Positions 18,416 through 64,000 of a stretch of 64,000 nucleotides of DNA are shown here, piece after piece; within the stretch, counting starts at the first letter, position 1, and every line of letters starts with the position of its first letter. The notes beneath the pieces are model-generated. The model did not search any database and was not told the DNA's origin. It was given only the letters and a program-made list of their open reading frames with translations. This DNA is from a phage. The stretch is taken from sequence record PZ445447.1. The stretch is one strand, 5' to 3'. The translations under genes and the position numbers were made by a program.

Positions 18416-18434
18416 TTTTTTAACTGAATTATCA

Positions 18435-18459
18435 AGGGGCTTAGGCCCCTTTCTTTTTG
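18435..18459 (+). terminator. rho-independent terminator
   Basis: hairpin aggggc-ttag-gcccct followed by ttctttttg. Confidence 0.6.
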
Positions 18460-20927
18460 TCTGCTCTTCCCCCTACCATAAACGGCCCTACCTGGCAAGT
18501 GGAATAATTGACGAGCCATCAATCCCACACACTGTACAAACATACATATAAAATAACTATTGCATAATTTTTCATTGTGTGGTAGCAGGGCCATTTTTAC
18601 ACGTTTTTCCTTCCAAAATTGCACGTAATGCAGCATTTGCACAAAATTTAACCTGATGCATATATTCAATAGCTTGTCAACAACTAAAAATCTTTATAAG
18701 TCATACACTTACATAACTACAAAAGCGTTTTCTACGTGAAAAATCGAGTATAACTATAGCCGCCAGATCTCAGAATTTACGTACGCTCGCCATTCTATAG
18801 CCTGCTAAGCATTTATTCCAACCATAGAATAACGGAATAGTCAATACCTGCATAAAATAATTATTCGTGTAAACTGCATAACATAAATCGGCCCAGGTGT
18901 CAACATTTTTCGTAAACAGTCTGGAATTGTCACGTTAGGTTACCATAAGCAGAGAAATCTTCAGTCGTCTAATGTTTACTGTACGTTACTATATTAACTG
19001 AAATCATTAGATGACTAATAGAAAGATAAGAAATAATTAACAATACAATTATTTTATCTGTAACAATAAGGCAACTATGCAAACGAATGGCATGGCGCGA
19101 CGGAGTCGCGACATAATATAAAAGCAGTAACCATCACCCCCGTGATAGTTTGTCTGCAAACTATTAATCAGATCATAGTTGCCTTGTATTTAGTTAATCA
19201 TGACATAACAAGCAAGGCAACTATAGATCTGCTAATAGTTGCCCTGCTTTTATATTATGTCATGCTAATTATAATCAGTGCGATTATTGTCATGTATAAT
19301 TATTGTCATGCAAACGAATGGCATGGCTGATTATCGGTGTGTAAACAGTCAATCATGTAAATGGTTAGCATGTGAACAATCAGGAATGTAAACAATCCAG
19401 TGTGTAAACTAATAGGTGTGTAAAAGTGTCATGTTGTGTCAGTTAGGTCACATTATGTCAGACAAGTTTTTCTCCTCTTTGTCAAGTGCTGCATGAAAAA
19501 TTTACAAGCTTGTATGGTAGCATTTTTGCGGCCCTGTTTACATTCAGGAGTGTATGTATAATCCTTGGTGTGTGGGCGTTTAGACGTCTGGACGGTAAGA
19601 AGTCTGCAGGTTAATATCTAATCTATCGGCTGCTAACTATATCCCACACAAATAGTAAGAAATATAATTGTTATGTGCGTAAACAGTAACCCATGTTATC
19701 AATCCCTGTATGTATCGCCAGTGGTGCGCATAATGGGTATTATGTTAAATTGCCCGTAATGATAAAGGTTCTCACAATGATAGGTATTCTCATTCACCCT
19801 CACAAAATAGATTGCAAATGTTGTGCCACTGTGTGAACGGCCTCACCTATTAATTTGCCTCACTGCCTCGATATTTGAGAATTATTATAAGAATGAGAAG
19901 TATTCCCATTTCGTCCGCCTGGCAGCACTCCAGTCGCTACGGCTCATGACAGGGCAGCACTCCTGTAGGTCAGGTCAAAATCGTGGTAGAATTGGGCCTG
20001 TTCAGATATTTCTGGCTGACTCTTCAGGTCTGTGTGGGAAAAGCCAACCTCTCCGGCGGGGCAGGGGGTCATGACGGGAAAATTGCAGGTCAATTAAAAA
20101 ATTTACGTGGTGTATGAAGCGCTCTTCAGGTAAGGCAGGTATTAGAGGATGAAACCCTCTTCAGGCAATGATATTTGTGGGTGTGATATTTGCTGGAAAG
20201 CCAGATATGACGGGACTCCCGGCGGGGATGGGGTAGTACAGACAGGGAAAATATGGGGATGTAGTTGGGTAAATTGATCAGGCAGGTAGAGTATGGATTA
20301 TGTTACAGGTATGTTAAATATGGAGGTTGAATATCTGTAAGATTTGTGTGTAAAATCAAAGACTTAAGTGGTGTTGTGGTATTTTCTATAAATAATTCAA
20401 GTTTAATAGGTAATATTTGTCTCTATCCACTTTGTGTGGTAAACAGATTCAGATGAAATTGGTTTACAAGTGTATACATAATATACAAATTAAAGATACA
20501 AGAAACCCCCCTCCCCTTCGGCTACCATTCACCTTTTCCTCTGACTGGTACTTAAACACTTATTCAGACTCTTCAGGTTATCACCCATATATCATATGGC
20601 AGTGACTGGTGTCCTCCGGCCCCTCTTTCGTCACCCGTCCGCTTCGCCATGCTAATGCCATAGCCAATGGTTCGGTTGTTCACCCTGTTCACTCAGGTGT
20701 ATCTCCATACCCCTTCAAACCGAAGAGAACAGAAAACCCGAATTACTCGGTAAAAGAAAAGAGAAGAACTTAATTTTATCAAGATAGGCAAGAATGTCAA
20801 GGCATGACTGCTCACTAAACAAGCAAACAGTCATGTGTGGGAGGTAAGTGATTGTGGTTGTAGGAAATTTAGTTGAAAGATGTGTTATAGGTGCTTCCAG
20901 CACTTTAGCCGGGTAGCTAATTGTGTG
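18460..20927. repeat. repeat-rich non-coding zone between converging gene blocks
   Basis: no convincing ORF; gcaaacgaatggcatggc at 19079 and 19310; ggcaactat in direct and inverted copies around 19067-19240; tgtaaaca-type motif four times in 19340-19420; ctcttcagg four or more times in 19990-20570. Confidence 0.6.
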
Positions 20928-43544: not shown

Positions 43545-44138
43545 TCAAATACCTTCTAAAAACTTTCCTATTTTATACCAGCTATTAGCGGTATAGTCAA
43601 CACTGACCTTTAACTCCTCAAATTGCTCATAAGGCGTATCTTTTAGGATTTTAATAACTTCAGGGCGTGAAGCGAATTGGTTCAGGTATTCATGCCTGTC
43701 GTCAATTATAACATCTACAGCCACATTTCCCTTGAAATGCGTGGCGTAGAAGCCGTGACCCTGGGTGTGATCGTCCAGATCCATAAAATCACTAGTCCAA
43801 CGCTTTAAGAACCTTGATTTAGATGCAAGGTGACCTTTCTTGCATACCGAGATAAATGCAAGCTTGTGACCACGAGCCACCAAATCTTTCATAACCTCAA
43901 TAGCCCCCTCTTCAGGCTTAAGAAAGTCGTAGAGGAACGGGTCACTCCAGAAATCAAAAGGCCCTATGATGTTTTCTTTGGGGCGATCAGGCCAATACTT
44001 TGACAGATCGTAATACATCAGCCCATTAGAAGGTTTAGCGACTGTCTTACTGGCTGGACCATATAAACGCTCCAACCACTCCCACCATGCTGTTCCTGAA
44101 TCTACCAGTGTCAAATCTACATCAATACCGATTAACAT
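43545..44138 (-). CDS. HAD-family phosphatase, putative 5'-(deoxy)nucleotidase
   Basis: HAD motif I DVDLT near N-terminus and IIDD motif; nucleotide-metabolism context. Confidence 0.55.
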   Translation of the reverse strand: MLIGIDVDLTLVDSGTAWWEWLERLYGPASKTVAKPSNGLMYYDLSKYWPDRPKENIIGPFDFWSDPFLYDFLKPEEGAIEVMKDLVARGHKLAFISVCKKGHLASKSRFLKRWTSDFMDLDDHTQGHGFYATHFKGNVAVDVIIDDRHEYLNQFASRPEVIKILKDTPYEQFEELKVSVDYTANSWYKIGKFLEGI

Positions 44139-44749
44139 TCTTCTTGGGCCTCTTTAGAATCAATATACTTGCACACAATCTCCGATGCACATTCCCAAGG
44201 TGCACCTTCAGGGTTTACAACATCGAACTCAATTCCTTTTATTCCGTTCTTTTCCAGACTTAGATAGGTTCTGGAATCATTTCCCCAGTCATATCCGACA
44301 CGGTGAATACGGAACAACAACAGATCTCCACCTGTGCTGTACGCGTACTCGCTAAGGCATGCCAGCTCCTCTTTGAATCCACCATCGGAGTAAACAACAA
44401 CCCCTTTACCTTTAGGGAAATCTTTCTTCAAAGATGCGACTGCGGCTTTACCGAAAGCATCTTCACCAAAGATAGGTTTAATCAGATTTTCACTACAATG
44501 GATCATCCATTCTCGCGGAGAAACATGCTTGCCGTCTATCATTAAGAAAGGGCAAGGCTCTTCTTTGTAGTGGCGGTCATAAAGTGCATTCCAGATTTGA
44601 GGAGTTACGCCAGCTGCCTTAATTGCCACACTGAAGAGCATCTCCTTAACCTCACGGTGGTGTGAGTTAGGAATAGCTTCCAACAAGAGATCTGCAATGT
44701 GATCCTTACCACTGCTGGGTGGGGCGTTAAGAACAATAATATCCATCAA
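44132..44749 (-). CDS. P-loop kinase, putative deoxynucleoside monophosphate kinase
   Basis: Walker A NAPPSSGKD at N-terminus (GxxxSGKD as in phage dNMP kinases); adjacent to nucleotidase and thyX. Confidence 0.55.
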   Translation of the reverse strand: MMDIIVLNAPPSSGKDHIADLLLEAIPNSHHREVKEMLFSVAIKAAGVTPQIWNALYDRHYKEEPCPFLMIDGKHVSPREWMIHCSENLIKPIFGEDAFGKAAVASLKKDFPKGKGVVVYSDGGFKEELACLSEYAYSTGGDLLLFRIHRVGYDWGNDSRTYLSLEKNGIKGIEFDVVNPEGAPWECASEIVCKYIDSKEAQEEC

Positions 44750-52043: not shown

Positions 52044-53327
52044 TCATTCAAGCACCTCCCAAGTGTCTGGGTTAACATTTCGGACGCAGATACCGACAGG
52101 GAATTGGTAGTTGTTGTCTTCTGTCCTTGCTTGGTATTTGAAGGTGACAAACTTGCCGATCATTTCCTGCATCCTGTCATAGCTACGCTCCTCGTGCGTG
52201 CCTTTCATCTTCATTTTAACAACAACACCTTCCTTGTCAACACAGATAAGAACACCTTCATCATTCTTATCTTTCTCAACGTCAATAACTTTCACCTCTG
52301 CGTCGTTGAACTTTTTCCATTTCAATGCTTCAGATGTTCGCTGACCATACTCATATTTACCGCAGAAATTACGCATGATAGTACCTTCATATCCTTCGGA
52401 CATGAATATACCAACAGATTCTTCGCAATGATCAACTGTGTACGCAAGCTCCGCGTCAACAACCTTGATATGATCAAGCATCAGAGTGGTAACGGTATCC
52501 TCTGCATCCATAAGATCCTTGCAGCGTCCAGACTCTGTTTCTGGATCCCACCACACCTTGTCGCTAGGAATATCAAAAATGTGATACTCCAGATCGTAGC
52601 TACAGTATCCACCGTAACGCAAATCATCACGAACAGGCTCAACATCGACAGGAATATCTACCTTGTTGAAGTTTTTGTATGTTGATAAGCCTGCCTTAAT
52701 TGCTGCATGACGGCGTTTTTTATCTGCCTCATAGTCTTTATCGATCTCGGCCTGAATCTCTTCCTGTGTGCGCCACCGTTTAGCAAGAGACACTATTTTC
52801 TGCAAAGGAAGACCATGAATGTATAGTTCCCCATCAAGTTGTTTAATCCCAGTGGTAGAATGGAAAGAACGAAGTTGCTCTAAAAGCTTTCCTTGAATAG
52901 GGTAGGACTTATTACCACGGGAAATAAATTTAGGCTCACCATTTTGGAAAACAACAAGCAGACGAAGGCCATCTAACTTACGCAAGATCCAGCAAGGTAA
53001 TTTAAGTGCCTTGCCACGCTTCAGGTAGTCATGCACCAGCATAGGTAAAAGATCAACACCCTGCTCGCAATCTTCCATGTTTTCAACATACCCCAGACGG
53101 ACTTGTTTTTCCCACTTGCTGATAGCCTCAAGCTCGGCCTGTTGCTCAGCTGTAGTCTCGTTGGCACGACCTACGTTTTTAGGTGTACATACCGTCTCTT
53201 TGTACTGCAATTTACCGTCAAGCTTGCCAAACTCTACGATAACCTTTTCGCCATCAGTGAATACTTTCCACTGTTGGTAGCTGCCATCTTTGTTCAGTGC
53301 GTACAGTGTTGTTTTGATTTGATGCAT
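52044..53327 (-). CDS. ATP-dependent DNA ligase
   Basis: nucleotidyltransferase motif I ILRKLDGLR (KxDGxR); 427 aa. Confidence 0.7.
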   Translation of the reverse strand: MHQIKTTLYALNKDGSYQQWKVFTDGEKVIVEFGKLDGKLQYKETVCTPKNVGRANETTAEQQAELEAISKWEKQVRLGYVENMEDCEQGVDLLPMLVHDYLKRGKALKLPCWILRKLDGLRLLVVFQNGEPKFISRGNKSYPIQGKLLEQLRSFHSTTGIKQLDGELYIHGLPLQKIVSLAKRWRTQEEIQAEIDKDYEADKKRRHAAIKAGLSTYKNFNKVDIPVDVEPVRDDLRYGGYCSYDLEYHIFDIPSDKVWWDPETESGRCKDLMDAEDTVTTLMLDHIKVVDAELAYTVDHCEESVGIFMSEGYEGTIMRNFCGKYEYGQRTSEALKWKKFNDAEVKVIDVEKDKNDEGVLICVDKEGVVVKMKMKGTHEERSYDRMQEMIGKFVTFKYQARTEDNNYQFPVGICVRNVNPDTWEVLE

Positions 53328-53953: not shown

Positions 53954-54667
53954 TTAAATATACTCTGTTACATCCTTGAAGCTCGAAGGCTTCATAATCT
54001 TACCTTTACTGTCAAGGAATATAATAACTTTATTACCGTTGTAGAACTCCTCTTTAGCAACGAAACCTTCGTAGCGACCACCAAAACGACGCTCAAGATC
54101 TTCAATCTCTAACTCTATGAGCAATTCAGTAGACATATCTGCACTGGCACCGTGAGAATATCGTAGATGGTTGATCCGTGCAAACTTGCTGTCATTAGAT
54201 TTGAGAACCTTCCGCATCATCCCACACACATCGCCGCGAAGCTGGAACAGCAAAGCTGTTGACAACTCCGCTAAGCGGTAAGCTGACGCTCTTTGCTTGG
54301 ATGTGTTTTTCGCAGCGATCAGTGTATCATAGAACTCACCGATCTTGAACTTAAGACCTCGTGGATTATCAAACAGGTTTGACCACTTTTCGTGATTATC
54401 ATTAACAAGATAAGCGGCATAACTTGTGACAACGTGAAGATCGCAGGCCTCTTTTAGCAGGTGATCTCCACCATCACCTTTCTCCAGCTCTTCCAAAACC
54501 TCATTGAACTCTTCCTCAATGAAGCTAAGCTGTAATTCGAATGGTGTGTATGATTTTTTCACTTTAGCTGCCACACGGTTCCAGTTTTCCACCCAGTTGG
54601 CAGACCAAAGGTAGTTTTCAGGCTGAGACAGTTTTTCCAGGTTGTCGATCAGTTTAGTATTCAGCAT
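53954..54667 (-). CDS. hypothetical protein, possible MazG-like NTP pyrophosphohydrolase domain
   Basis: EEEFNEVLEELEKGDGGDHLLKEACDLH loosely fits the MazG E-x2-E...E-x2-D metal-binding pattern; weak. Confidence 0.4.
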   Translation of the reverse strand: MLNTKLIDNLEKLSQPENYLWSANWVENWNRVAAKVKKSYTPFELQLSFIEEEFNEVLEELEKGDGGDHLLKEACDLHVVTSYAAYLVNDNHEKWSNLFDNPRGLKFKIGEFYDTLIAAKNTSKQRASAYRLAELSTALLFQLRGDVCGMMRKVLKSNDSKFARINHLRYSHGASADMSTELLIELEIEDLERRFGGRYEGFVAKEEFYNGNKVIIFLDSKGKIMKPSSFKDVTEYI

Positions 54668-54680
54668 TAAAGGTCTCCTT

Positions 54681-55442
54681 TTAAAGTTCCATAAAGTTTT
54701 CTACGGTCTCAATGAATGTTTTATCAGAGAAAGCGTCAACCGCCCCGTTAAACCAAACCGGGATGCCGCGATCCTCGTACTGGTAAATATCACTACGTGA
54801 AATGCCATTCTCCTCTAGATGCTGTGAGTCGTATTTGTTAACGATCAGCAGTTTGGTGCCCTTATTGCAGGCAGGGAATAGCTCCCAGTTAAAATTGATA
54901 ACTGTGTTGGAACACCCTACAAGGATAACCATATCATTGCTTGTAAGAGAAGTCAACAGGTCATACATGTCTGTATACTTCGGAGCTACTTCTCCGAAGA
55001 ACACCACATTAGGTTTAACCCAGGTATACTTTCCTGCATCTACCTCAGAGTATCCAATGTCCTTAATGACGTCACTTCCTTCATCGTCCTCATAGACTAT
55101 TTCTGGCAAATACCCGTGAACATGTAAAATATCTTCATGTTTTACACCAGCACGCTCCAGCAAATCATCTACATTGGTGGTAAGGTTGATCACACGACCA
55201 GACCAGCGGGAATACCACTCAGCGATCCGAAGATGTGCAAGGTTAGGCTCAACACCGCCTAGAGCTACACGACGTGCATTGTAAAAGTCATGCACCTTGT
55301 AGTAGTTCTTGGCAAAGGTGTGGATGTTGCACACCTCATCGATGCTGAAATTCTCCCACATTGCAGTGCTACCAGATCGGAAAGTGGGAATACCAGATTC
55401 AGCGCTCAAACCAGCACCGGAGATAATAATCAGTCGTCGCAT
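54681..55442 (-). CDS. Sir2-family NAD-dependent protein (sirtuin-like)
   Basis: NAD-binding signature ISGAGLSAESGIPTFRS, plus HG and VVFFGE; no canonical CxxC...CxxC zinc ribbon seen. Confidence 0.75.
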   Translation of the reverse strand: MRRLIIISGAGLSAESGIPTFRSGSTAMWENFSIDEVCNIHTFAKNYYKVHDFYNARRVALGGVEPNLAHLRIAEWYSRWSGRVINLTTNVDDLLERAGVKHEDILHVHGYLPEIVYEDDEGSDVIKDIGYSEVDAGKYTWVKPNVVFFGEVAPKYTDMYDLLTSLTSNDMVILVGCSNTVINFNWELFPACNKGTKLLIVNKYDSQHLEENGISRSDIYQYEDRGIPVWFNGAVDAFSDKTFIETVENFMEL

Positions 55443-55450
55443 AAGTGTCC

Positions 55451-55801
55451 TCAGTAGATGTTTTGTTTAATCTCTATTCCAAACTTTTTAAACGAGTCAG
55501 CTGCAAGCATGAATTTACGAGCCGCTGATGGGTTAGAAGTATGCACGAAAATCTTCACGTTGTCAACTACAGGGGGCTCACCAAATACAAATTTTTCCTC
55601 CAACATAGATAGGCAATCGTACCCTTCGAACAACTCTCCAAGGTCGTTGTCCATGTGCCACTCAGAAACGCGTCTGTAGAGCTTTCCCCTATCGTTAATA
55701 AAATCTATAAACTCGGAGGAATTCTTTAGCCAAATAGCGTCGGGGAGCCCATAATTTGACGGATCTCTCAAGTCATCCAGCCACACAATCAACTTCTTCA
55801 T
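55451..55801 (-). CDS. hypothetical protein
   Basis: 116 aa; coupled to the RNA ligase gene. Confidence 0.5.
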   Translation of the reverse strand: MKKLIVWLDDLRDPSNYGLPDAIWLKNSSEFIDFINDRGKLYRRVSEWHMDNDLGELFEGYDCLSMLEEKFVFGEPPVVDNVKIFVHTSNPSAARKFMLAADSFKKFGIEIKQNIY

Positions 55802-56733
55802 TGCATATAGTTCTCGTTGTGGAAATAGTAATCAAGTATCTCACGGCGTTCCTGCTCCAGGAGGCAGTTCCACACATCTTCTGTGTAATTGTTACGAATG
55901 AAGTTTACCATGCCGTAAAACTCTTCGTCAACACGTTTAAAGATATCATCATCCCAAATCTTCCAAGCTTTACCCCTCATTACGGCCTTTCGTGCCAGAT
56001 AGTATGGAGACTTGATCTTCAACTGCAGATCATAAGGGTAGTAAGGCTTACGAATCATATATCCTTCACCTCTTGTTTCTGCAGCTAACTCTTTTGCATA
56101 GCTGAACGGAATTTCACGCACAGTGTGAGGACGTTTTGCACCAAGGTATTTGGCAATCCCATCTAAAGCGGCTTCTGGTAGCATTATTCCAGAATCATTA
56201 TATCTGCAACCTATCAAATATGCGCCATGGTCTTCTTGAACAATATGCGGATCTGAAGGGTGACAAATTTCAAACATGAATGTCATGTTTTCATTGCCCA
56301 TAACCTTCTTGATAAGATCTAAATTACCACATTGCTCTTGGATGGTTTCCTTTGCAAGGTTACAATATGGAGAATCAAGAGACCCGGTTGTTGAGAACAA
56401 TAGGTCACCTTTATGAGATGATACCACACCAAGGAATCCGTTCTTTTTCTCTACCGCAGTCACAAGCTTATTGTCAGGCAGGTTGGTGGAGTTTTCTCCC
56501 AAGTTAAACACTTTTGTGAAGGGCCATGCCACAACATTTCCTTCATTACCGACAACAATGCCTCGGCACTCCAGTAATCGAGGAGACAAATGCCATAAGT
56601 TGTTGTAGAATACTTTTCTGGCATATTTATAGATCTTTAACCCAAGATCTGGGTAATATCTGCTGGTTACAAGACCTTTGTCAACTAGGTCGTCTGCATT
56701 AAAATACTTCATCATACGTTCCTCATTTGTCAT
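55798..56733 (-). CDS. RNA ligase (T4 Rnl1-like)
   Basis: WHLSPRLLECRGIVV...KVFNLGEN parallels T4 Rnl1 WLLPDALECRGIMF...KFFNLNEN; motif I VEKKNGFLGV (KxNG); FMFEICHP and LKIKSPYY blocks. Confidence 0.7.
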   Translation of the reverse strand: MTNEERMMKYFNADDLVDKGLVTSRYYPDLGLKIYKYARKVFYNNLWHLSPRLLECRGIVVGNEGNVVAWPFTKVFNLGENSTNLPDNKLVTAVEKKNGFLGVVSSHKGDLLFSTTGSLDSPYCNLAKETIQEQCGNLDLIKKVMGNENMTFMFEICHPSDPHIVQEDHGAYLIGCRYNDSGIMLPEAALDGIAKYLGAKRPHTVREIPFSYAKELAAETRGEGYMIRKPYYPYDLQLKIKSPYYLARKAVMRGKAWKIWDDDIFKRVDEEFYGMVNFIRNNYTEDVWNCLLEQERREILDYYFHNENYMQ

Positions 56734-56833
56734 TTTGTCCCTTTATCCTGCCACACAAATAACCTAGTGTCAACACTTGAAATTAACAAAACAGTTAGGT
56801 ATACTATCATCGAAATTAAAACGGAGGGTTACT

Positions 56834-57244
56834 ATGTCTAAAATGCTATATATCGTGCGTGGTCTACCAGGGTCTGGCAAATCAACACTGGCAAATGCGC
56901 TATCTTTAGAAGGTCTGTATCCACATTTTGAGAACGACATGTTCTGGTACGACGATGATGGAAATTACAACTGGGATGCAAGTAAAGTAACACTTGCAGC
57001 AAAATGGTGCAAAGATAACGTAGAAGATATGATGCGTATGGGATACGACCGTATCGTGGTAAGTAATACATTTACAAAAGAAAAATATGTGCAAGAATAT
57101 ATTGACATGGCGATCAGTCATGGGTATAGTTATACCGTAATCGTGGTTGAAAACCGCCATGGTAGTAAAAGCATTCATGATGTTCCAGACAGGGTTGTGG
57201 ATCGTATGGAACGCCAGCTTAAAAACTGCATTAAACTTAAATGA
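56834..57244 (+). CDS. P-loop kinase (polynucleotide kinase-like)
   Basis: ATG 56834 after acggagggtt RBS; Walker A VRGLPGSGKSTLA; 136 aa. Confidence 0.6.
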   Translation: MSKMLYIVRGLPGSGKSTLANALSLEGLYPHFENDMFWYDDDGNYNWDASKVTLAAKWCKDNVEDMMRMGYDRIVVSNTFTKEKYVQEYIDMAISHGYSYTVIVVENRHGSKSIHDVPDRVVDRMERQLKNCIKLK

Positions 57245-57251
57245 GGAATGT

Positions 57252-57806
57252 ATGAAATACTTTGTAACAAGCGACACACACTTTCTCCACCAGCGGGTCA
57301 TGGAGTTTGACTCATGTCAAAAACACAGATCTCAGTATGATCACAATCTTGACAGTATGAATGCGGGGATCATCACCAAGTGGAACTCTGTTGTGTCACC
57401 TGCAGACACTGTGTTTCACTTAGGAGATATTGCGTGCACTAATGATAAGAATATTAACAAATTGCTCCCAGATGTTCTAAATATGTTGAACGGACATATT
57501 ATTCTTGTTCGTGGTAACCATGACACAAGGACGACTGTCAGAATTATGAAAGAGTTCGGTCATGAGGTTGTAGATTATTACGAGCTTCGCCACAACAAGA
57601 ATTTGATCTGTATGAGCCATTACCAGTTTGCAAAGTGGAACAGAAAGCCTCACGGATCAGTCCAACTGTTCGGTCATGCTCACGGAACCACACAACAGTT
57701 GTTTGGCAGACAGTTTGATGTCGGTTGGGATGTGTGGGGGAGACTCTTACCATTAGAAGAGGCATACCGTATTGCAATGAGTTTTGCTATTGACAGCGGG
57801 GAGTAA
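57252..57806 (+). CDS. calcineurin-like metallophosphoesterase
   Basis: metallophosphatase motifs SDTHF, GDIA, GNHD, GHAH; 8 nt after the kinase gene. Confidence 0.7.
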   Translation: MKYFVTSDTHFLHQRVMEFDSCQKHRSQYDHNLDSMNAGIITKWNSVVSPADTVFHLGDIACTNDKNINKLLPDVLNMLNGHIILVRGNHDTRTTVRIMKEFGHEVVDYYELRHNKNLICMSHYQFAKWNRKPHGSVQLFGHAHGTTQQLFGRQFDVGWDVWGRLLPLEEAYRIAMSFAIDSGE

Positions 57807-57853
57807 TCCCTGCTATTTTAAAGAAAATTGCCACACAAGGAGAATCAGGAGAT

Positions 57854-58204
57854 ATGAAAGATGGGGATAAGCTGCTATATCTTAAAGTCCCCCTTGAAAT
57901 ACTATCTATGTCAAAAGTTTTGAATGACACAACTGGGGAGGTTGTTGTTCTTGACTTGTATGACAAGATCGTATACTGCTACCTGCACAACTGGTATAAG
58001 CTTGGAGGAAGTTCACGCTTCACACCCAGCACAAGGAAAATTGCAGCAGATGTTGGAATAAAGAAAACAAAAGCAGCAGCGTGCGTTAAAACTTTAGAAT
58101 GTGCGGGAGTGGTTGAAATATCCACACAAGGGAGAGGTAAAAGATGCACATTTTCCAAAGTTTTGCCACCAGAAGAAGTTATTCGAATGTCAACAACTGG
58201 TTAG
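57854..58204 (+). CDS. putative helix-turn-helix DNA-binding protein
   Basis: HTH-like RKIAADVGIKKTKAAACVKTLECAGVVEI; followed by the palindromic repeat array. Confidence 0.5.
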   Translation: MKDGDKLLYLKVPLEILSMSKVLNDTTGEVVVLDLYDKIVYCYLHNWYKLGGSSRFTPSTRKIAADVGIKKTKAAACVKTLECAGVVEISTQGRGKRCTFSKVLPPEEVIRMSTTG

Positions 58205-58276
58205 ACCAGTAAAAACTTAAATATCTGTACTATAAGGATTCGTATGTTTTATGTTCGCTCTGGAACAGAGGTTAGT

Positions 58277-58361
58277 AACTGTCCGTGATACGGACACTAC
58301 TGTCCGTCACGCGGACACATCTGCCCGTAATACGGACACTAACTGTCCGTGATACGGACAC
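58277..58361. repeat. four tandem 21-bp palindromic repeats
   Basis: units taactgtccgtgatacggacac / tactgtccgtcacgcggacac / atctgcccgtaatacggacac / taactgtccgtgatacggacac, each with inverted half-sites gtccg...cggac. Confidence 0.65.
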
Positions 58362-60742: not shown

Positions 60743-60817
60743 GCCCTGTTAGCTTAGTGGATAAAGCAGCGGCCTTCTAAGCCGTTGACACTGGTTCGAG
60801 TCCAGTACGGGGTGCCA
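60743..60817 (+). tRNA. tRNA-Arg (anticodon TCT)
   Basis: manual cloverleaf: acceptor gccctgt/acggggt, D-stem gctt/aagc, anticodon loop cttctaa, T-arm actgg-ttcgagt-ccagt, encoded CCA. Confidence 0.8.
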
Positions 60818-60821
60818 AATT

Positions 60822-60908
60822 GGGGAGTTATCCCGTAGAGGTAGCGGTGTAGACTGTAAATCTATTGTCATTGCGACTCGGGTGGTTCGACTCCACCACT
60901 CCCCACCA
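60822..60908 (+). tRNA. tRNA-Tyr (anticodon GTA), type II
   Basis: acceptor ggggagt/actcccc, anticodon loop ctgtaaa, long variable arm, T-arm ggtgg-ttcgact-ccacc, encoded CCA. Confidence 0.75.
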
Positions 60909-61022
60909 AATTTATATTTTTAGATGCATAAATAATACAGATAATGGCATTGATATTTATCGTCGTTTATACTAGTCACTAACTGCTCGAAAATCAGTGT
61001 CATTATCAGTATAATTTATAAA

Positions 61023-61113
61023 GGAGGGTAGGGAGCAATGGTGCTCAAGCGGTCTTGAAAACCGTCCCGTTGAGGATGACTCGATGATGGTTCGATTCCA
61101 TTACTCTCCGCCA
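61023..61113 (+). tRNA. tRNA-Ser (anticodon TGA), type II
   Basis: acceptor ggagggt/actctcc, anticodon arm gcggt-cttgaaa-accgt, long variable arm, T-loop ttcgatt, encoded CCA. Confidence 0.75.
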
Positions 61114-61211
61114 CATTGTTGACCTTGTAATTAAGCGAAAGCCGGAAGCAGAACCGGATTATCAAATGTTACAGTCGTCATCGCCGACTAGCAACATGGT
61201 CAACATACTGA

Positions 61212-61310
61212 GCTAGGTAAGCCCTTTGGCAAGGGCGAGGATTTTTAATCCTGAAAATAGACGAGGTAGTCGTTGAATACATAGGTGGTTCGATTCCATC
61301 ACCTAGCACC
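61212..61310 (+). tRNA. atypical tRNA-like gene (anticodon ambiguous, TTT if 7-nt loop)
   Basis: acceptor gctaggt/acctagc, D-arm gccc-tttggcaa-gggc and T-arm ggtgg-ttcgatt-ccatc are canonical, but anticodon stem is imperfect and 29 nt lie between anticodon arm and T-arm; 99 nt total. Confidence 0.4.
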
Positions 61311-61315
61311 TTTTT

Positions 61316-61391
61316 GCTGATGTAGCACAATCGGTAGTGCAATTGATTTGTAATCAATAGGTTGTAGGTTCAAGTCCTGCCATCAGCACCA
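61316..61391 (+). tRNA. tRNA-Thr (anticodon TGT)
   Basis: acceptor gctgatg/catcagc, D-stem gcac/gtgc, anticodon arm attga-tttgtaa-tcaat, T-loop ttcaagt, encoded CCA. Confidence 0.8.
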
Positions 61392-61392
61392 A

Positions 61393-61467
61393 GGCCCTGT
61401 AGCTGGAAGGTTCAAGCAAGCGACTCATAATCGCCAGACGGTGGTTCAATTCCACCCAGGGCCACCA
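61393..61467 (+). tRNA. tRNA with CAT anticodon (Met or lysidine-type Ile)
   Basis: acceptor ggccctg/cagggcc, anticodon loop ctcataa, T-arm ggtgg-ttcaatt-ccacc, encoded CCA; 3-bp D-stem and A.C at top of anticodon stem. Confidence 0.65.
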
Positions 61468-61478
61468 AATAGTAAATA

Positions 61479-61555
61479 CTCCGCGTAGCTCAGCTTGGTA
61501 GAGCGCCTGATTTGGGATCAGGAGGTCGAGTGTTCGAATCACTCCGTGGAGACCA
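61479..61555 (+). tRNA. tRNA-Pro (anticodon TGG)
   Basis: acceptor ctccgcg/cgtggag, D-arm gctc-agcttggta-gagc, anticodon arm cctga-tttggga-tcagg, T-loop ttcgaat, encoded CCA. Confidence 0.8.
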
Positions 61556-61958: not shown

Positions 61959-61976
61959 CGTTTCTGGAGCCTTAAA

Positions 61977-62375
61977 ATGATTTCAGTTTTAACATGGCTG
62001 AGCAGGTATAAAGGGATCATAAAAGGTTTAGTTTTTGCAGCTGCGATAGGTACAGCTTATCTTGGGGCCGTGTATTGGTTTAACTCTAAGCTTAATGATG
62101 CCTACCAAGAAGGTGTGTCAGCAACAGAGTTAAAGTGGGAACGGATCCTTGATCAGCAACAAAAGCAGGCCGACAAAATTAAAATGGGCCACGCAGAGGA
62201 GGTTAAAAACCTTGAAAAATCCCTTTCTGATCTGCAGGATAAATTAAATATAGCTGAGAAGGCAGGTAAAGAAAAGCAGATTATCTACCTCCAGTCACCT
62301 GAAGGCAAGAAGTCAACACTTCCTGATCAGCTTATAGATATTTATAATGAGAGTATCAATCAGGAGGATCAATGA
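61977..62375 (+). CDS. putative i-spanin (Rz-like)
   Basis: N-terminal TM helix GIIKGLVFAAAIGTAYLGAVYWF followed by charged coiled-coil periplasmic domain; overlaps next gene by ATGA. Confidence 0.55.
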   Translation: MISVLTWLSRYKGIIKGLVFAAAIGTAYLGAVYWFNSKLNDAYQEGVSATELKWERILDQQQKQADKIKMGHAEEVKNLEKSLSDLQDKLNIAEKAGKEKQIIYLQSPEGKKSTLPDQLIDIYNESINQEDQ

Positions 62376-62659
62376 GAGTTGCTACACTGTTTATTGTGTG
62401 CTTGTTATTATGTGGGTGTGCAACCAGCGTTGAGAGAGAATACAAGATTGACCCTCCTGATGTAGGAAGGTTGATTGTTAAACCCCCGGAAGGTGCCATG
62501 AAACCACCTGCTAAAGCTATGCCTTTGAAGAAAGGTGCGCCAGATGCAGTGAATTCTGGCATTATGAGGGATAATAATCTGTCTTGTAGCAATGATAGAG
62601 CTAAATTGATCATTTTGCAAGACTATATTAGAACACTTTTTCCAAAGGAGAGAGGTTAA
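62372..62659 (+). CDS. putative o-spanin (Rz1-like lipoprotein)
   Basis: signal peptide with Cys cluster (FIVCLLLCGCATS) and proline-rich mature region (DPPDVGRLIVKPPEGAMKPPAKAMP); lipobox non-canonical. Confidence 0.5.
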   Translation: MRVATLFIVCLLLCGCATSVEREYKIDPPDVGRLIVKPPEGAMKPPAKAMPLKKGAPDAVNSGIMRDNNLSCSNDRAKLIILQDYIRTLFPKERG

Positions 62660-63087
62660 TGTCTAAGATTTACGGACCGTGTTCTGAAAAGCAGAAGATG
62701 ATCCTAGAAAACGATGCAGATATTTTGGTAATCGGCGGTGCCGCAGGGTCTGGCAAGTCGTTCCTCTTGCAATTGATGCCACTTAAAATTATTGATGACC
62801 CCCACAGCTCTGTGGTTATGTTCCGAAGAACAACCCCACAGTTGGAAGGTGAGGGTGGATTATGGCCTAAAGCAGTAGCTATTTATAGTGATCTGCCTGA
62901 AAACATTAAGCCAAAGTTTAGAGAGAAGGATCATAAGTTCATTTTTCCACGGTTTGATCCGAACACTGGCAAGTGGGATAGAAGCAAAAAGGGAGCTGTT
63001 GTAAAATACTGCCACATGGAGTATGTACAAGATAAGCTTAACCATCAGGGGCTTGAGTACACCATGGTTTGCTTCGATGAGGGTTAA
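62659..63087 (+). CDS. terminase large subunit-like P-loop ATPase, N-terminal fragment (gene interrupted)
   Basis: Walker A ILVIGGAAGSGKSF and Walker B-like MVCFDEG; the frame stops immediately after the Walker B at 142 aa. Confidence 0.5.
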   Translation: MSKIYGPCSEKQKMILENDADILVIGGAAGSGKSFLLQLMPLKIIDDPHSSVVMFRRTTPQLEGEGGLWPKAVAIYSDLPENIKPKFREKDHKFIFPRFDPNTGKWDRSKKGAVVKYCHMEYVQDKLNHQGLEYTMVCFDEG

Positions 63088-64000
63088 TTTGTAGCTCTCG
63101 TAAAACCTCCCTAATTGCGGGGAAATCTTTATTATTGACACCACCAACCTGTCATGGTAACATGACAGAGGCTTCGAAGAGAGATCGAAGGTATGGTAAC
63201 AGTGTGTTAATTTAGATAATCCGCAGCGAAGCATCCGAGAGGATGAACGTTCAACGACTAGTCGAAAGACGTAGAATCAAGCGATTCGAAACGGGAGGGT
63301 GAATGTGTAATACTAAGAAATGTATGGATTGCCAAAGAGTTCTACCTATTGATGATTTCTTTTTATCATCTAAGAGCAAGGATGGATACTCAGGTACATG
63401 CAAGGAATGCTATATGTACTACAGGAAGGGTGGATCTCGTAAAAACAAAAATATGGTTAAGAGAGATGATGCAGCATTGTTTATTCAAGACTTGCTGAAG
63501 AAAGGTGAACTTTTTGAATGCAAATCTTGTCATGAAAGTATGCTCGCTGATAGTTTTTACACAAAACGTGACTATGGTAAAGTATATCTGGTTACGAACA
63601 GGTGTAAGATGTGTGAAAAGTTTTATCAGATTGAGAAGAAATTTCACATAACAAAAGATGAATACTATCGTCTACTCTCAGATCAAGATCATAAGTGTGC
63701 CATTTGTAGAATATCCCTTGATGAGTATAGGACGCAAGGGTATAGAGATTTCTTTTGTGTTGATCATGACCATAAAACTGGTGCTGTAAGAGGGTTGCTT
63801 TGTGATAAATGCAACAGAGCTTTAGGTTTCTTCCAAGAGGATGAGGAAACTATTCTTAGAGCGGCAGAGTATTTACACATTCATAAGATATAGTCTGGTC
63901 TGCATGGAGACATGCAGCTGCCTGAAAATGGCGGGGCAAGACTAGCGACCTTGCCCGAACATAAACGACACAATTCGAATGGGAGCAGATAGACTACCTG
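63088..64000 (+). mobile_element. putative intron or homing-endonuclease insertion (runs past window end)
   Basis: structured sequence with GNRA-capped hairpins (ctgtcatg-gtaa-catgacag; ctgcatg-gaga-catgcag) flanking an Endo VII-like endonuclease ORF right after the truncated terminase-like frame; 3' boundary not in window. Confidence 0.4.
63303..63893 (+). CDS. Endo VII-like HNH homing endonuclease with N-terminal zinc-ribbon domains
   Basis: C-terminal HKCAICRISLDEY...VDHDHKTGAVRGLLCDKCNRALGFF is a textbook endonuclease VII core; N-terminal CMDCQ...DG...CKEC zinc-ribbon repeats; gggagggtga RBS. Confidence 0.7.
   Translation: MCNTKKCMDCQRVLPIDDFFLSSKSKDGYSGTCKECYMYYRKGGSRKNKNMVKRDDAALFIQDLLKKGELFECKSCHESMLADSFYTKRDYGKVYLVTNRCKMCEKFYQIEKKFHITKDEYYRLLSDQDHKCAICRISLDEYRTQGYRDFFCVDHDHKTGAVRGLLCDKCNRALGFFQEDEETILRAAEYLHIHKI

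Follow-up and report, generated by a model that had tools for sequence, protein, structure and literature searches.

The locus and its genes

The DNA analysed here, called the window below, is a stretch of 64,000 nucleotides (nt) from a phage (sequence record PZ445447.1), and our subject is a group of three genes: an RNA ligase gene on the minus strand (bas54_0209) and, diverging from it, a plus-strand pair encoding a P-loop kinase (bas54_0210) and a metallophosphoesterase (bas54_0211). Positions 55400-58300 of the window are 100% identical to Escherichia phage MaxBurger (Bas54, MZ501093.1; Vequintavirinae, Vequintavirus), whose locus names we use, and share ~98% DNA identity with rV5-type relatives. 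An initial annotation, made from the sequence alone, had placed open reading frames (ORFs) at 55798-56733 (-), 56834-57244 (+) and 57252-57806 (+) and had read them as an RNA-repair set with an arrangement different from that of T4. All three ORFs are found at these positions, and sequence comparison confirms that the gene set is real and encodes an Rnl1-family ligase, a small polynucleotide-kinase-type kinase and a calcineurin-like metallophosphoesterase. The predicted RNA-repair cluster is not new, being annotated in GenBank and described for phage V5 in 2022. Since MZ501093.1 already labels bas54_0209 'RNA ligase', bas54_0210 'polynucleotide kinase' and bas54_0211 'putative phosphoesterase', the gene identities proposed initially repeat an existing annotation. 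The features discussed in the text are collected in Table 1.

Table 1. Genes and other features considered in this work (window positions, except for the last row)
Feature	Position	Strand	Remarks
bas54_0209, Rnl1-family ATP-dependent RNA ligase, predicted sealing enzyme	55798..56715	-	Pfam PF09511, phrog_562, T4 Rnl1 profile match
bas54_0210, single-domain P-loop kinase, polynucleotide-kinase clade, predicted 5'-OH RNA kinase	56834..57244	+	136 amino acids
bas54_0211, binuclear metallophosphoesterase, aq_1665 family, predicted 3'-end healing (2',3'-cyclic phosphodiesterase and/or 3'-phosphatase)	57252..57806	+	184 amino acids
Divergent intergenic region, ligase operon / kinase-phosphoesterase pair	56716..56833	.	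Consensus promoter match
bas54_0208, cREC (cyclic-phosphate-processing receiver-like) domain protein	55451..55801	-	Pfam PF20274 E 9.8e-15
bas54_0207, Sir2-family protein	54681..55442	-	Pfam SIR2 E 5.5e-27
bas54_0206, MazG-like nucleotide pyrophosphohydrolase, last gene of the tight ligase-cREC-Sir2 run	53954..54667	-	phrog_671 E 5.7e-22
bas54_0203, ATP-dependent DNA ligase	52044-53327	-	C-terminal end of Pfam adenylation domain and OB domain only
Deoxynucleoside monophosphate (dNMP) kinase	44132-44749	-	phrog_139 E 1.3e-44; GenBank 'putative P-loop NTPase'
HAD-type NT5C-like nucleotidase, DxDxT motif	43545-44138	-	Pfam NT5C E 4.4e-6; GenBank 'hypothetical'
Kinase-ligase fusion loci, uncultured phages	L049, L050, L054, L056, L057, L059-L061, L064-L067 (IMG/VR contigs)

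bas54_0209 is an Rnl1-family RNA ligase

Read from the in-frame ATG at 56733, the ligase ORF encodes 311 amino acids (aa), and from the GenBank start at 56715 it encodes 305 aa. The latter start, which has GAGGAA just upstream, is favoured by the GenBank annotation and by the alignment of homologues, which begins at 56715. The protein scores 55.3 bits against Pfam RNA_lig_T4_1 (PF09511; gathering cut-off 28.3, E 1.1e-14), which places it within that family, and it also matches phrog_562 (E 2.3e-66). A search of PDB sequences with the single ligase sequence gave no match, and a family profile made from 31 homologues, which share 41-50% identity with bas54_0209, found T4 Rnl1 as its sole match in the PDB, with an E-value of 4e-13. 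The resemblance to T4 RNA ligase 1 pointed out in the initial annotation, motif I included, is therefore sustained, as all the motifs align.

The profile alignment to T4 Rnl1 (2c5u) matches the segments LECRG and FTKVFNxxE together with motifs I (KxNG), III (FE), IV (EG) and V (KIKS). Invariant across the ligase family, in 305-aa numbering, are R51, K68, F70, K90 and G93 (motif I), E149 (III), E217 and G218 (IV), and K233 and K235 (V). bas54_0209 thus has the nucleotidyltransferase motifs I, III, IV and V of Rnl1 as well as the upstream residues that correspond to T4 R54, K75 and F77, which we take, from established mutational work, to be important and specific to Rnl1. T4-like phages were absent both from the organism breakdown and from the listed tblastn matches of the ligase in GenBank phages. 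Given this absence and the lack of a single-sequence match in the PDB, the likeness to T4 Rnl1 must be regarded as remote. We considered whether bas54_0209 could be an orthologue of T4 RnlA and rejected this, since it reaches 38.7 bits against the NCBIfam equivalog TIGR02308, whose cut-off is 242. By its sequence, then, bas54_0209 is an Rnl1-family ligase with intact catalytic motifs and not a T4 RnlA orthologue. The T4-derived name 'tail fiber attachment catalyst' was likewise rejected as a transferred label; the gene is dispensable for plaque formation.

Members of the ligase family are present in 813 GenBank phage records. One homologue, Ralstonia phage RSP15 ORF097 (L004, 5531-6499), is labelled 'metallophosphoesterase' and matches the Rnl1-family ligase with an E-value of 4.1e-44; it is flanked by a kinase homologue labelled 'ATPase'. 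The label of ORF097 is probably a mis-annotation, judging from this match.

A small kinase of the polynucleotide-kinase clade

The kinase, bas54_0210, has the P-loop GLPGSGKST and matches Pfam AAA_33 (E 3.4e-10). A single-sequence search of PDB sequences yielded nothing useful. When the kinase profile was compared with the PDB, the full-length matches at E <= 0.001 were RNA and polynucleotide kinases (Pnkp1, PSTK, T4 Pnk and CthPnk); the alignment to two higher-scoring chains labelled just 'kinase' covered essentially the P-loop alone. In agreement with the profile, the structure model of the kinase is closest to T4 Pnk, CthPnk and Pnkp1, and its invariant D35 aligns with the catalytic general base D35 of T4 Pnk, so that the protein has both a Pnk-fold P-loop kinase domain and the catalytic Asp. 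A fused C-terminal HAD (DxDxT) 3'-phosphatase domain is not present in this single-domain protein of 136 aa, and the Pakpunavirus kinase homologue likewise has no HAD phosphatase domain (PMC12846349). Because the kinase has no phosphatase domain, the neighbouring phosphoesterase is the most consistent candidate for the healing of 3' ends.

A metallophosphoesterase of the aq_1665 family

The phosphoesterase gene starts 7 nt past the stop codon of the kinase. Its product, bas54_0211, has the motifs SDTHF, GDIA, GNHD and GHAH, scores above the cut-offs of both Pfam Metallophos and Metallophos_2 and gives a confident structure model. All seven metal ligands are kept and are invariant in the alignment. 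With the DxH, GD, GNH[DE], H and GHxH ligands on a metallophosphoesterase (MPE) fold, the protein is a member of the calcineurin-like superfamily. Profile searches with the three proteins recovered RNA ligase, polynucleotide kinase and metallophosphoesterase families, and both the P-loop kinase and the four phosphoesterase motifs of the initial annotation are as it described them.

The same annotation had likened the set to bacterial Pnkp, and at the level of the phosphatase clade this does not hold. We rejected a place for bas54_0211 in the lambda-phosphatase/CthPnkp clade, as neither the GDxxDR motif with its Arg nor a closest structural similarity to that clade was found; the protein belongs to the uncharacterised aq_1665 family. 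Its sequence is 95.7% identical to that of the phage V5 phosphoesterase.

The divergent intergenic region and the ligase operon

The kinase gene is separated from the ligase by 100 nt, counted to the start of the 311-aa ORF, or by 118 nt, counted to the annotated ligase start. Within it, a promoter-like element, TTGAAA-17-TATACT, lies at 56777-56805 (+), and the kinase ATG is preceded at a distance of 5 nt by a Shine-Dalgarno sequence, GGAGGG; both are consensus matches alone. The rV5 record has an annotated promoter under the homologous stretch. A divergent intergenic region of roughly 100 bp with a candidate promoter, as described initially, is thus present.

On the minus strand the ligase opens a tight run of genes that continues with cREC, Sir2 and MazG-like genes, all three of which had been overlooked in the initial annotation. 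The start codon of cREC overlaps the ligase stop codon (ATGA). The Sir2-family protein has the motifs GAGLS, TTNVDD and HVHG and no Cys pairs past the catalytic His. The MazG-like protein, which is assigned by its phrog match, had no match in Pfam.

These genes have been placed together before. Iyer, Burroughs, Anantharaman and Aravind (2022; Viruses 14:1977, PMC9503650, section 3.7.3) described a sirtuin-centred RNA-repair neighbourhood with Escherichia phage V5 and Proteus phage Mydo as prototypes. Their V5-type gene list comprises a T4-like tRNA ligase, cREC, a nucleotide kinase, a sirtuin, MazG and a calcineurin-like phosphoesterase, and the neighbourhood was read as a predicted NAD-linked RNA-repair system (PMC9503650). 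In this scheme the sirtuin was proposed to act as a KptA-like remover of RNA 2'-phosphate, the cREC family was predicted to open cyclic phosphates, and cREC and other phosphoesterases were proposed to resolve cyclic phosphates or ADP-ribose cyclic phosphate (PMC9503650). The MaxBurger locus is a neighbourhood of this V5/Mydo type, with all six genes lying within 53954-57806.

Kinase and phosphoesterase accompany the ligase across phages

We surveyed the surroundings of the ligase in 8 GenBank loci and in 80 IMG/VR loci for which similarity to the ligase was the sole criterion of choice, and searched them with iteratively built hidden Markov models of each window protein. Dereplication at 80% ligase identity left 54 clusters, of which 45 are flanked on each side by 3 kb of sequence or more, and the counts that follow refer to these 45 and to genes at most 3 kb from the ligase. 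The kinase is found in 40 of the 45 clusters, the phosphoesterase in 39 and both together in 35, against 6 for cREC, 7 for Sir2 and 1 for MazG. The phosphoesterase is present in all seven Sir2-bearing clusters. Since the kinase and the phosphoesterase accompany the ligase in most clusters and cREC or Sir2 do so in just 6-7 of the 45, we take the core to be a three-protein heal-and-seal set.

The trio occurs in Klebsiella Mydovirus KNP2, Justusliebigvirus ECGD1, Pakpunavirus JG004 and Vibrio Thalassavirus GRLPWR (Demerecviridae), and also in Ralstonia RSP15 (Ackermannviridae) and Nitrincola phage 1M3-16. Gene orders vary among the groups, and the three genes are kept together despite rearrangements in at least six phage groups. 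Among the survey loci, the divergent orientation is seen in two Vequintavirus-type loci alone (L001 and L009); the others have phosphoesterase-ligase-kinase or kinase-ligase-phosphoesterase on one strand. The divergent layout is thus a local rearrangement of Vequintavirus-type loci, and of the non-T4 arrangement put forward initially, the separate parts stand, while the layout is confined to these loci and the arrangement had already been annotated and published.

The numbers of GenBank phage records with ligase and with kinase run in parallel by host genus (Escherichia 200/198, Pseudomonas 177/173, Klebsiella 39/36 and Acinetobacter 26/24). In 12 loci belonging to two clusters, all from uncultured phages (Table 1), kinase and ligase form one polypeptide of ~432 aa, in which Pfam finds AAA_33 at residues 16-115 and RNA_lig_T4_1 at residues 184-367.

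These counts bear on the NAD-dependent route, resembling the fungal Trl1/Tpt1 pathway, that follows from the proposal of Iyer et al. 2022. In that route cREC would open the 2',3'-cyclic phosphate to leave 3'-OH/2'-PO4, the kinase would phosphorylate the 5' end and the ligase would seal with the 2'-phosphate left at the junction; Sir2, as a KptA analogue, would then move this phosphate to NAD+, and MazG and the phosphoesterase would just clear ADP-ribose cyclic phosphate. The ligase, cREC, Sir2 and MazG genes do form one tight co-directional run, with the cREC start placed over the ligase stop, and Sir2 retains its NAD-binding and catalytic His motifs. In addition, PF09511 takes in the ligase domain of fungal Trl1, and the published comparative analysis has phage V5 as its prototype (PMC9503650). 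The survey points the other way, however. The phosphoesterase occurs with the ligase in over 30 clusters that have no Sir2, and so cannot be a mere processor of sirtuin by-products. Further, the ligase profile matches T4 Rnl1 and no Trl1 ligase structure at E <= 1, no sirtuin is known to transfer RNA 2'-phosphate, and for cREC the activity is a predicted one (PMC9503650). The NAD route may also operate beside the core pathway, not in its place. Altogether, we regard it as an unlikely account of the locus.

Genes whose annotation is of the NAD-reconstitution type (nicotinamide/nicotinate phosphoribosyltransferase and ribose-phosphate pyrophosphokinase) lie a few kb from the trio in KNP2, GRLPWR, ECGD1 and JG004, and near a lone phosphoesterase in a Kayvirus (the loci with such genes being L002, L003, L005, L006 and L007). 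None is annotated in MaxBurger across window positions 1 to ~62000.

A proposed heal-and-seal pathway for broken RNA

The best-supported reading of the locus, judged by sequence, is that it is a phage module which would repair breaks in RNA, most likely in tRNA. Within this reading, a three-step heal-and-seal core composed of ligase, kinase and phosphoesterase appears reasonably probable, and RNA repair in general can be proposed with more confidence than this particular core. First, the aq_1665-family phosphoesterase bas54_0211 would strip the cyclic or 3' phosphate to leave a 3'-OH. Second, bas54_0210, a mini-Pnk, would phosphorylate the 5'-OH. Third, bas54_0209 would adenylylate the 5'-phosphate via Lys90 and seal the nick. 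The trio would in this way supply the three activities called for by breaks that leave a 2',3'-cyclic phosphate and a 5'-OH, with the logic of T4 Pnkp plus Rnl1. The cREC, Sir2 and MazG-like proteins of Vequintavirinae and their relatives would form an add-on, which probably deals with 2'-phosphate ends and NAD-derived by-products. What we observe is the family to which each protein belongs, the preservation of the catalytic residues, the conserved gene neighbourhood and the fusion of kinase and ligase.

A larger proposal joins these elements. The aq_1665-family phosphoesterase would be an unrecognised class of RNA 3'-healing enzyme which, with a Pnk of ~130 aa and a short Rnl1-type ligase, would make up the most widespread phage tRNA-repair pathway, spanning Vequintavirinae, Stephanstirmvirinae, Pakpunavirus, Thalassavirus and many uncultured phages, and to which Vequintavirinae would add a NAD-consuming branch of cREC and Sir2 for 2'-phosphate ends. 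We hold this fuller version tentatively and judge it to fall somewhat short of probable. As for the initial interpretation, its notion of a healing set of separate proteins, with a calcineurin-type and not a HAD phosphoesterase, holds as a bioinformatic inference from the Rnl1 motifs, the kinase fold and the synteny; as a whole that interpretation is partly supported.

Several observations weigh against heal-and-seal repair by the trio. In the ligase, Lys119 of T4 Rnl1 is not conserved (T110, in STTGS), and the C-terminal tRNA-specificity domain of T4 is undetectable in the profile alignment to T4 Rnl1, which ends at motif V (T4 residue 250); the domain is not recognisable because just ~70 residues remain in bas54_0209 after that motif. 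The kinase-ligase fusion loci have no aq_1665-type phosphoesterase, and in L065, the one locus inspected with Pfam for a substitute 3'-healing enzyme beside the fusion gene, just DUF3307 and a weak Pyr_excise were found. The phosphoesterase family is wider than that of the ligase (1401 against 813 GenBank phage records) and occurs without this ligase or kinase, as in the Staphylococcus Kayvirus locus L007, so that it is not dedicated to the repair pathway. Besides aq_1665, the nearest characterised structural relatives of bas54_0211 are LpxH, MJ0936, YfcE and an MPE nuclease, with diverse substrates. In 19 of the 45 clusters an ATP-dependent DNA ligase gene is found no more than 3 kb from the RNA ligase, which makes a role at DNA ends possible. 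Finally, the HIDEN-SEQ transposon-sequencing study of Bas54 (bioRxiv 10.1101/2025.11.20.689424) does not name the trio genes among those that are conditionally essential, and in one K-12-versus-clinical-isolate resampling table the three have log2 fold changes of +0.3 to +0.4 with q of 0.75-1.0, not significant.

Some of these points could be taken to mean that the phosphoesterase degrades nucleotide second messengers or small phosphoesters, in anti-signalling or nucleotide metabolism, that the kinase acts on a nucleotide or metabolite, and that their adjacency to the ligase is ordinary clustering of early genes. Apart from locus L007, the phosphoesterase is common in records of Staphylococcus, Listeria, Enterococcus and Bacillus phages, where the ligase is rare or missing from the top-genus counts; its structural relatives other than aq_1665 are small-molecule phosphodiesterases and LpxH; NAD-salvage genes are nearby in several relatives; and the kinase is termed just 'nucleotide kinase' by Iyer et al. 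(PMC9503650). Against this stand the kinase-ligase fusion proteins, the structural proximity of the kinase to polynucleotide and tRNA kinases with the catalytic Asp aligned, and the linkage of the trio through rearrangements in at least six phage groups. The phage also has a separate dNMP kinase (Table 1), whose presence had been noted in the initial annotation and is upheld by its phrog_139 match. A metabolic or anti-signalling role for the pair therefore looks quite improbable to us.

Alternatively, the kinase and the phosphoesterase could prepare 5'-OH and 3'-phosphate ends of DNA for sealing by the ATP-dependent DNA ligase encoded nearby, in which case the cluster would serve DNA repair or replication. 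The DNA ligase gene of the window is 2.5 kb downstream, T4 Pnkp is active on DNA as well, some MPE relatives are DNA nucleases, and the 19 clusters with a neighbouring DNA ligase are to be reckoned with. This linkage is nevertheless lower than that of the kinase (40/45) or the phosphoesterase (39/45), the kinase is found fused to the RNA ligase and not to the DNA ligase, and the DNA ligase gene, bas54_0203, is itself non-essential on K-12 according to HIDEN-SEQ (bioRxiv 10.1101/2025.11.20.689424). We consider DNA-end healing very improbable, more so than a metabolic role, and retain RNA repair by the trio as the preferred reading.

Dispensability on E. coli

In the HIDEN-SEQ study, bas54_0206, 0207, 0209, 0210 and 0211 are non-essential on E. 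coli K-12 and 0208 is intermediate (bioRxiv 10.1101/2025.11.20.689424). The dispensability of the trio on K-12 would fit an accessory role in counter-defence, if the nuclease that the genes answer is missing from the strains used, and it argues against an essential, T4-like role in tail-fibre attachment. These data are no positive evidence for the function of the trio.

Other features of the window

A tRNA cluster at 60743-61555 follows the trio ~3 kb downstream. ARAGORN predicts 7 tRNAs in it (Arg-tct, Tyr-gta, Ser-tga, one undetermined, Thr-tgt, Met/Ile-cat and Pro-tgg), and the GenBank list of 6 leaves out the Ser-tga gene at 61023-61113. The element at 61212-61308 (97-99 nt) is a tRNA-Lys in GenBank, receives an odd 4-base anticodon from ARAGORN and scores 35.5 bits against the Rfam tRNA model. 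An atypical tRNA-Lys beside a tRNA-repair module could be related to the evasion of anticodon nucleases.

The dNMP kinase gene overlaps the downstream gene for the NT5C-like nucleotidase by 7 nt. This order of kinase and then HAD protein, at 43545-44749, mimics the layout of T4 Pnkp; the families to which the two sequences are assigned point to nucleotide metabolism.

Between the plus-strand and minus-strand gene blocks there is a gene-free region of 2.5 kb (18416-20927), and around 20-22 kb the GC content reaches a low of 0.388 and the sign of the GC skew is reversed. According to the HIDEN-SEQ authors, this intergenic region tolerates no transposon insertions (bioRxiv 10.1101/2025.11.20.689424). 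It could represent an origin or else a non-coding element that is essential.

The window is offset by 74370 relative to MZ501093.1, and the end of that record (136346) corresponds to window position 61976. The remaining ~2 kb (61977-64000) are past the end of the linear record and presumably wrap to its start or reflect a differently permuted assembly. The stretch 55400-58300 of this coliphage is also matched by 18 records titled 'Campylobacter phage' (host C. jejuni); in the two listed, A112b and A141, the ligase protein identity is 97-99%. Host mislabelling or contamination is the likely explanation of these records.

Comparison with known repair systems

Defences that cleave tRNA are common and include PrrC, RloC, PARIS, retron Eco7, HEPN, Schlafen and the collateral cleavage of Cas13. 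T4 Pnkp (PseT) and Rnl1 (RnlA) repair tRNA-Lys and thereby counter the anticodon nuclease PrrC, and to our knowledge this is the sole phage repair answer tested so far. Our literature search returned no experimental work on RNA repair in non-T4 phages; in a Schlafen paper, RNA ligase appears in the references only. The Bas54-type module appears to be a non-T4 solution and a widespread one, given the occurrence of its ligase family in GenBank phage records. As the product of a genome scan, the locus restates what GenBank annotates and what had been predicted in print for this phage genus; the residual interest is in the function of aq_1665, in a minimal Pnk and in whether a sirtuin and a receiver-like domain may act on RNA. 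If the activities that we infer, with 3' healing by the phosphoesterase, RNA as the target and a role in counter-defence against anticodon nucleases, were true, the aq_1665 metallophosphoesterase family would gain a first function, ~130 aa would be established as the size of a minimal polynucleotide kinase, a potential reagent, and the part played by the sirtuin and the receiver-like domain in RNA repair would be learned, possibly with the first sirtuin acting on RNA.

The logic is that of T4 Pnkp plus Rnl1, in which a 5' kinase and the healing of 3' ends are combined with a ligase of the Rnl1 family. The Bas54 ligase has all the catalytic motifs of Rnl1, and the Bas54 kinase has the fold of T4 Pnk and its Asp35. 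Unlike T4 Pnkp, this kinase stands alone and carries no HAD (DxDxT) phosphatase domain, and 3' healing in Bas54 would be performed by an unrelated binuclear metallophosphoesterase. Also, the N-terminal domain of T4 rnlA is intolerant of insertions, whereas bas54_0209 is dispensable.

The bacterial Pnkp/Hen1 systems, represented by Clostridium thermocellum Pnkp and Capnocytophaga Pnkp1-Rnl-Hen1, differ in that Bas54 has three separate proteins and not one fusion, has no Hen1 methyltransferase and has a ligase of the Rnl1 family instead of the Pnkp ligase family. For the phosphoesterase the nearest relative, aq_1665, is a structural-genomics metallophosphoesterase from Aquifex aeolicus (PDB 1XM7) whose uncharacterised function gives no guide to that of bas54_0211. 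With fungal and plant Trl1 (ligase-kinase-CPD) and Tpt1/KptA the locus shares an Rnl1-type ligase domain that would work with a P-loop kinase, the kinase-ligase fusions of its relatives and the NAD-consuming step proposed for the Sir2 partner; the phage fusions, unlike Trl1, run kinase and then ligase, with no 2H cyclic phosphodiesterase and no KptA.

The closest system is that of V5 and Mydo, which has the same six genes in the same phage genus as the MaxBurger locus. Its description puts the sirtuin at the centre and calls the phosphoesterase 'occasional', whereas in our ligase-centred counts it is the kinase and the phosphoesterase that are constant. Our survey thus refines that description: the phosphoesterase is a core partner of the ligase and not an occasional one, and the sirtuin, cREC and MazG belong to a single lineage.

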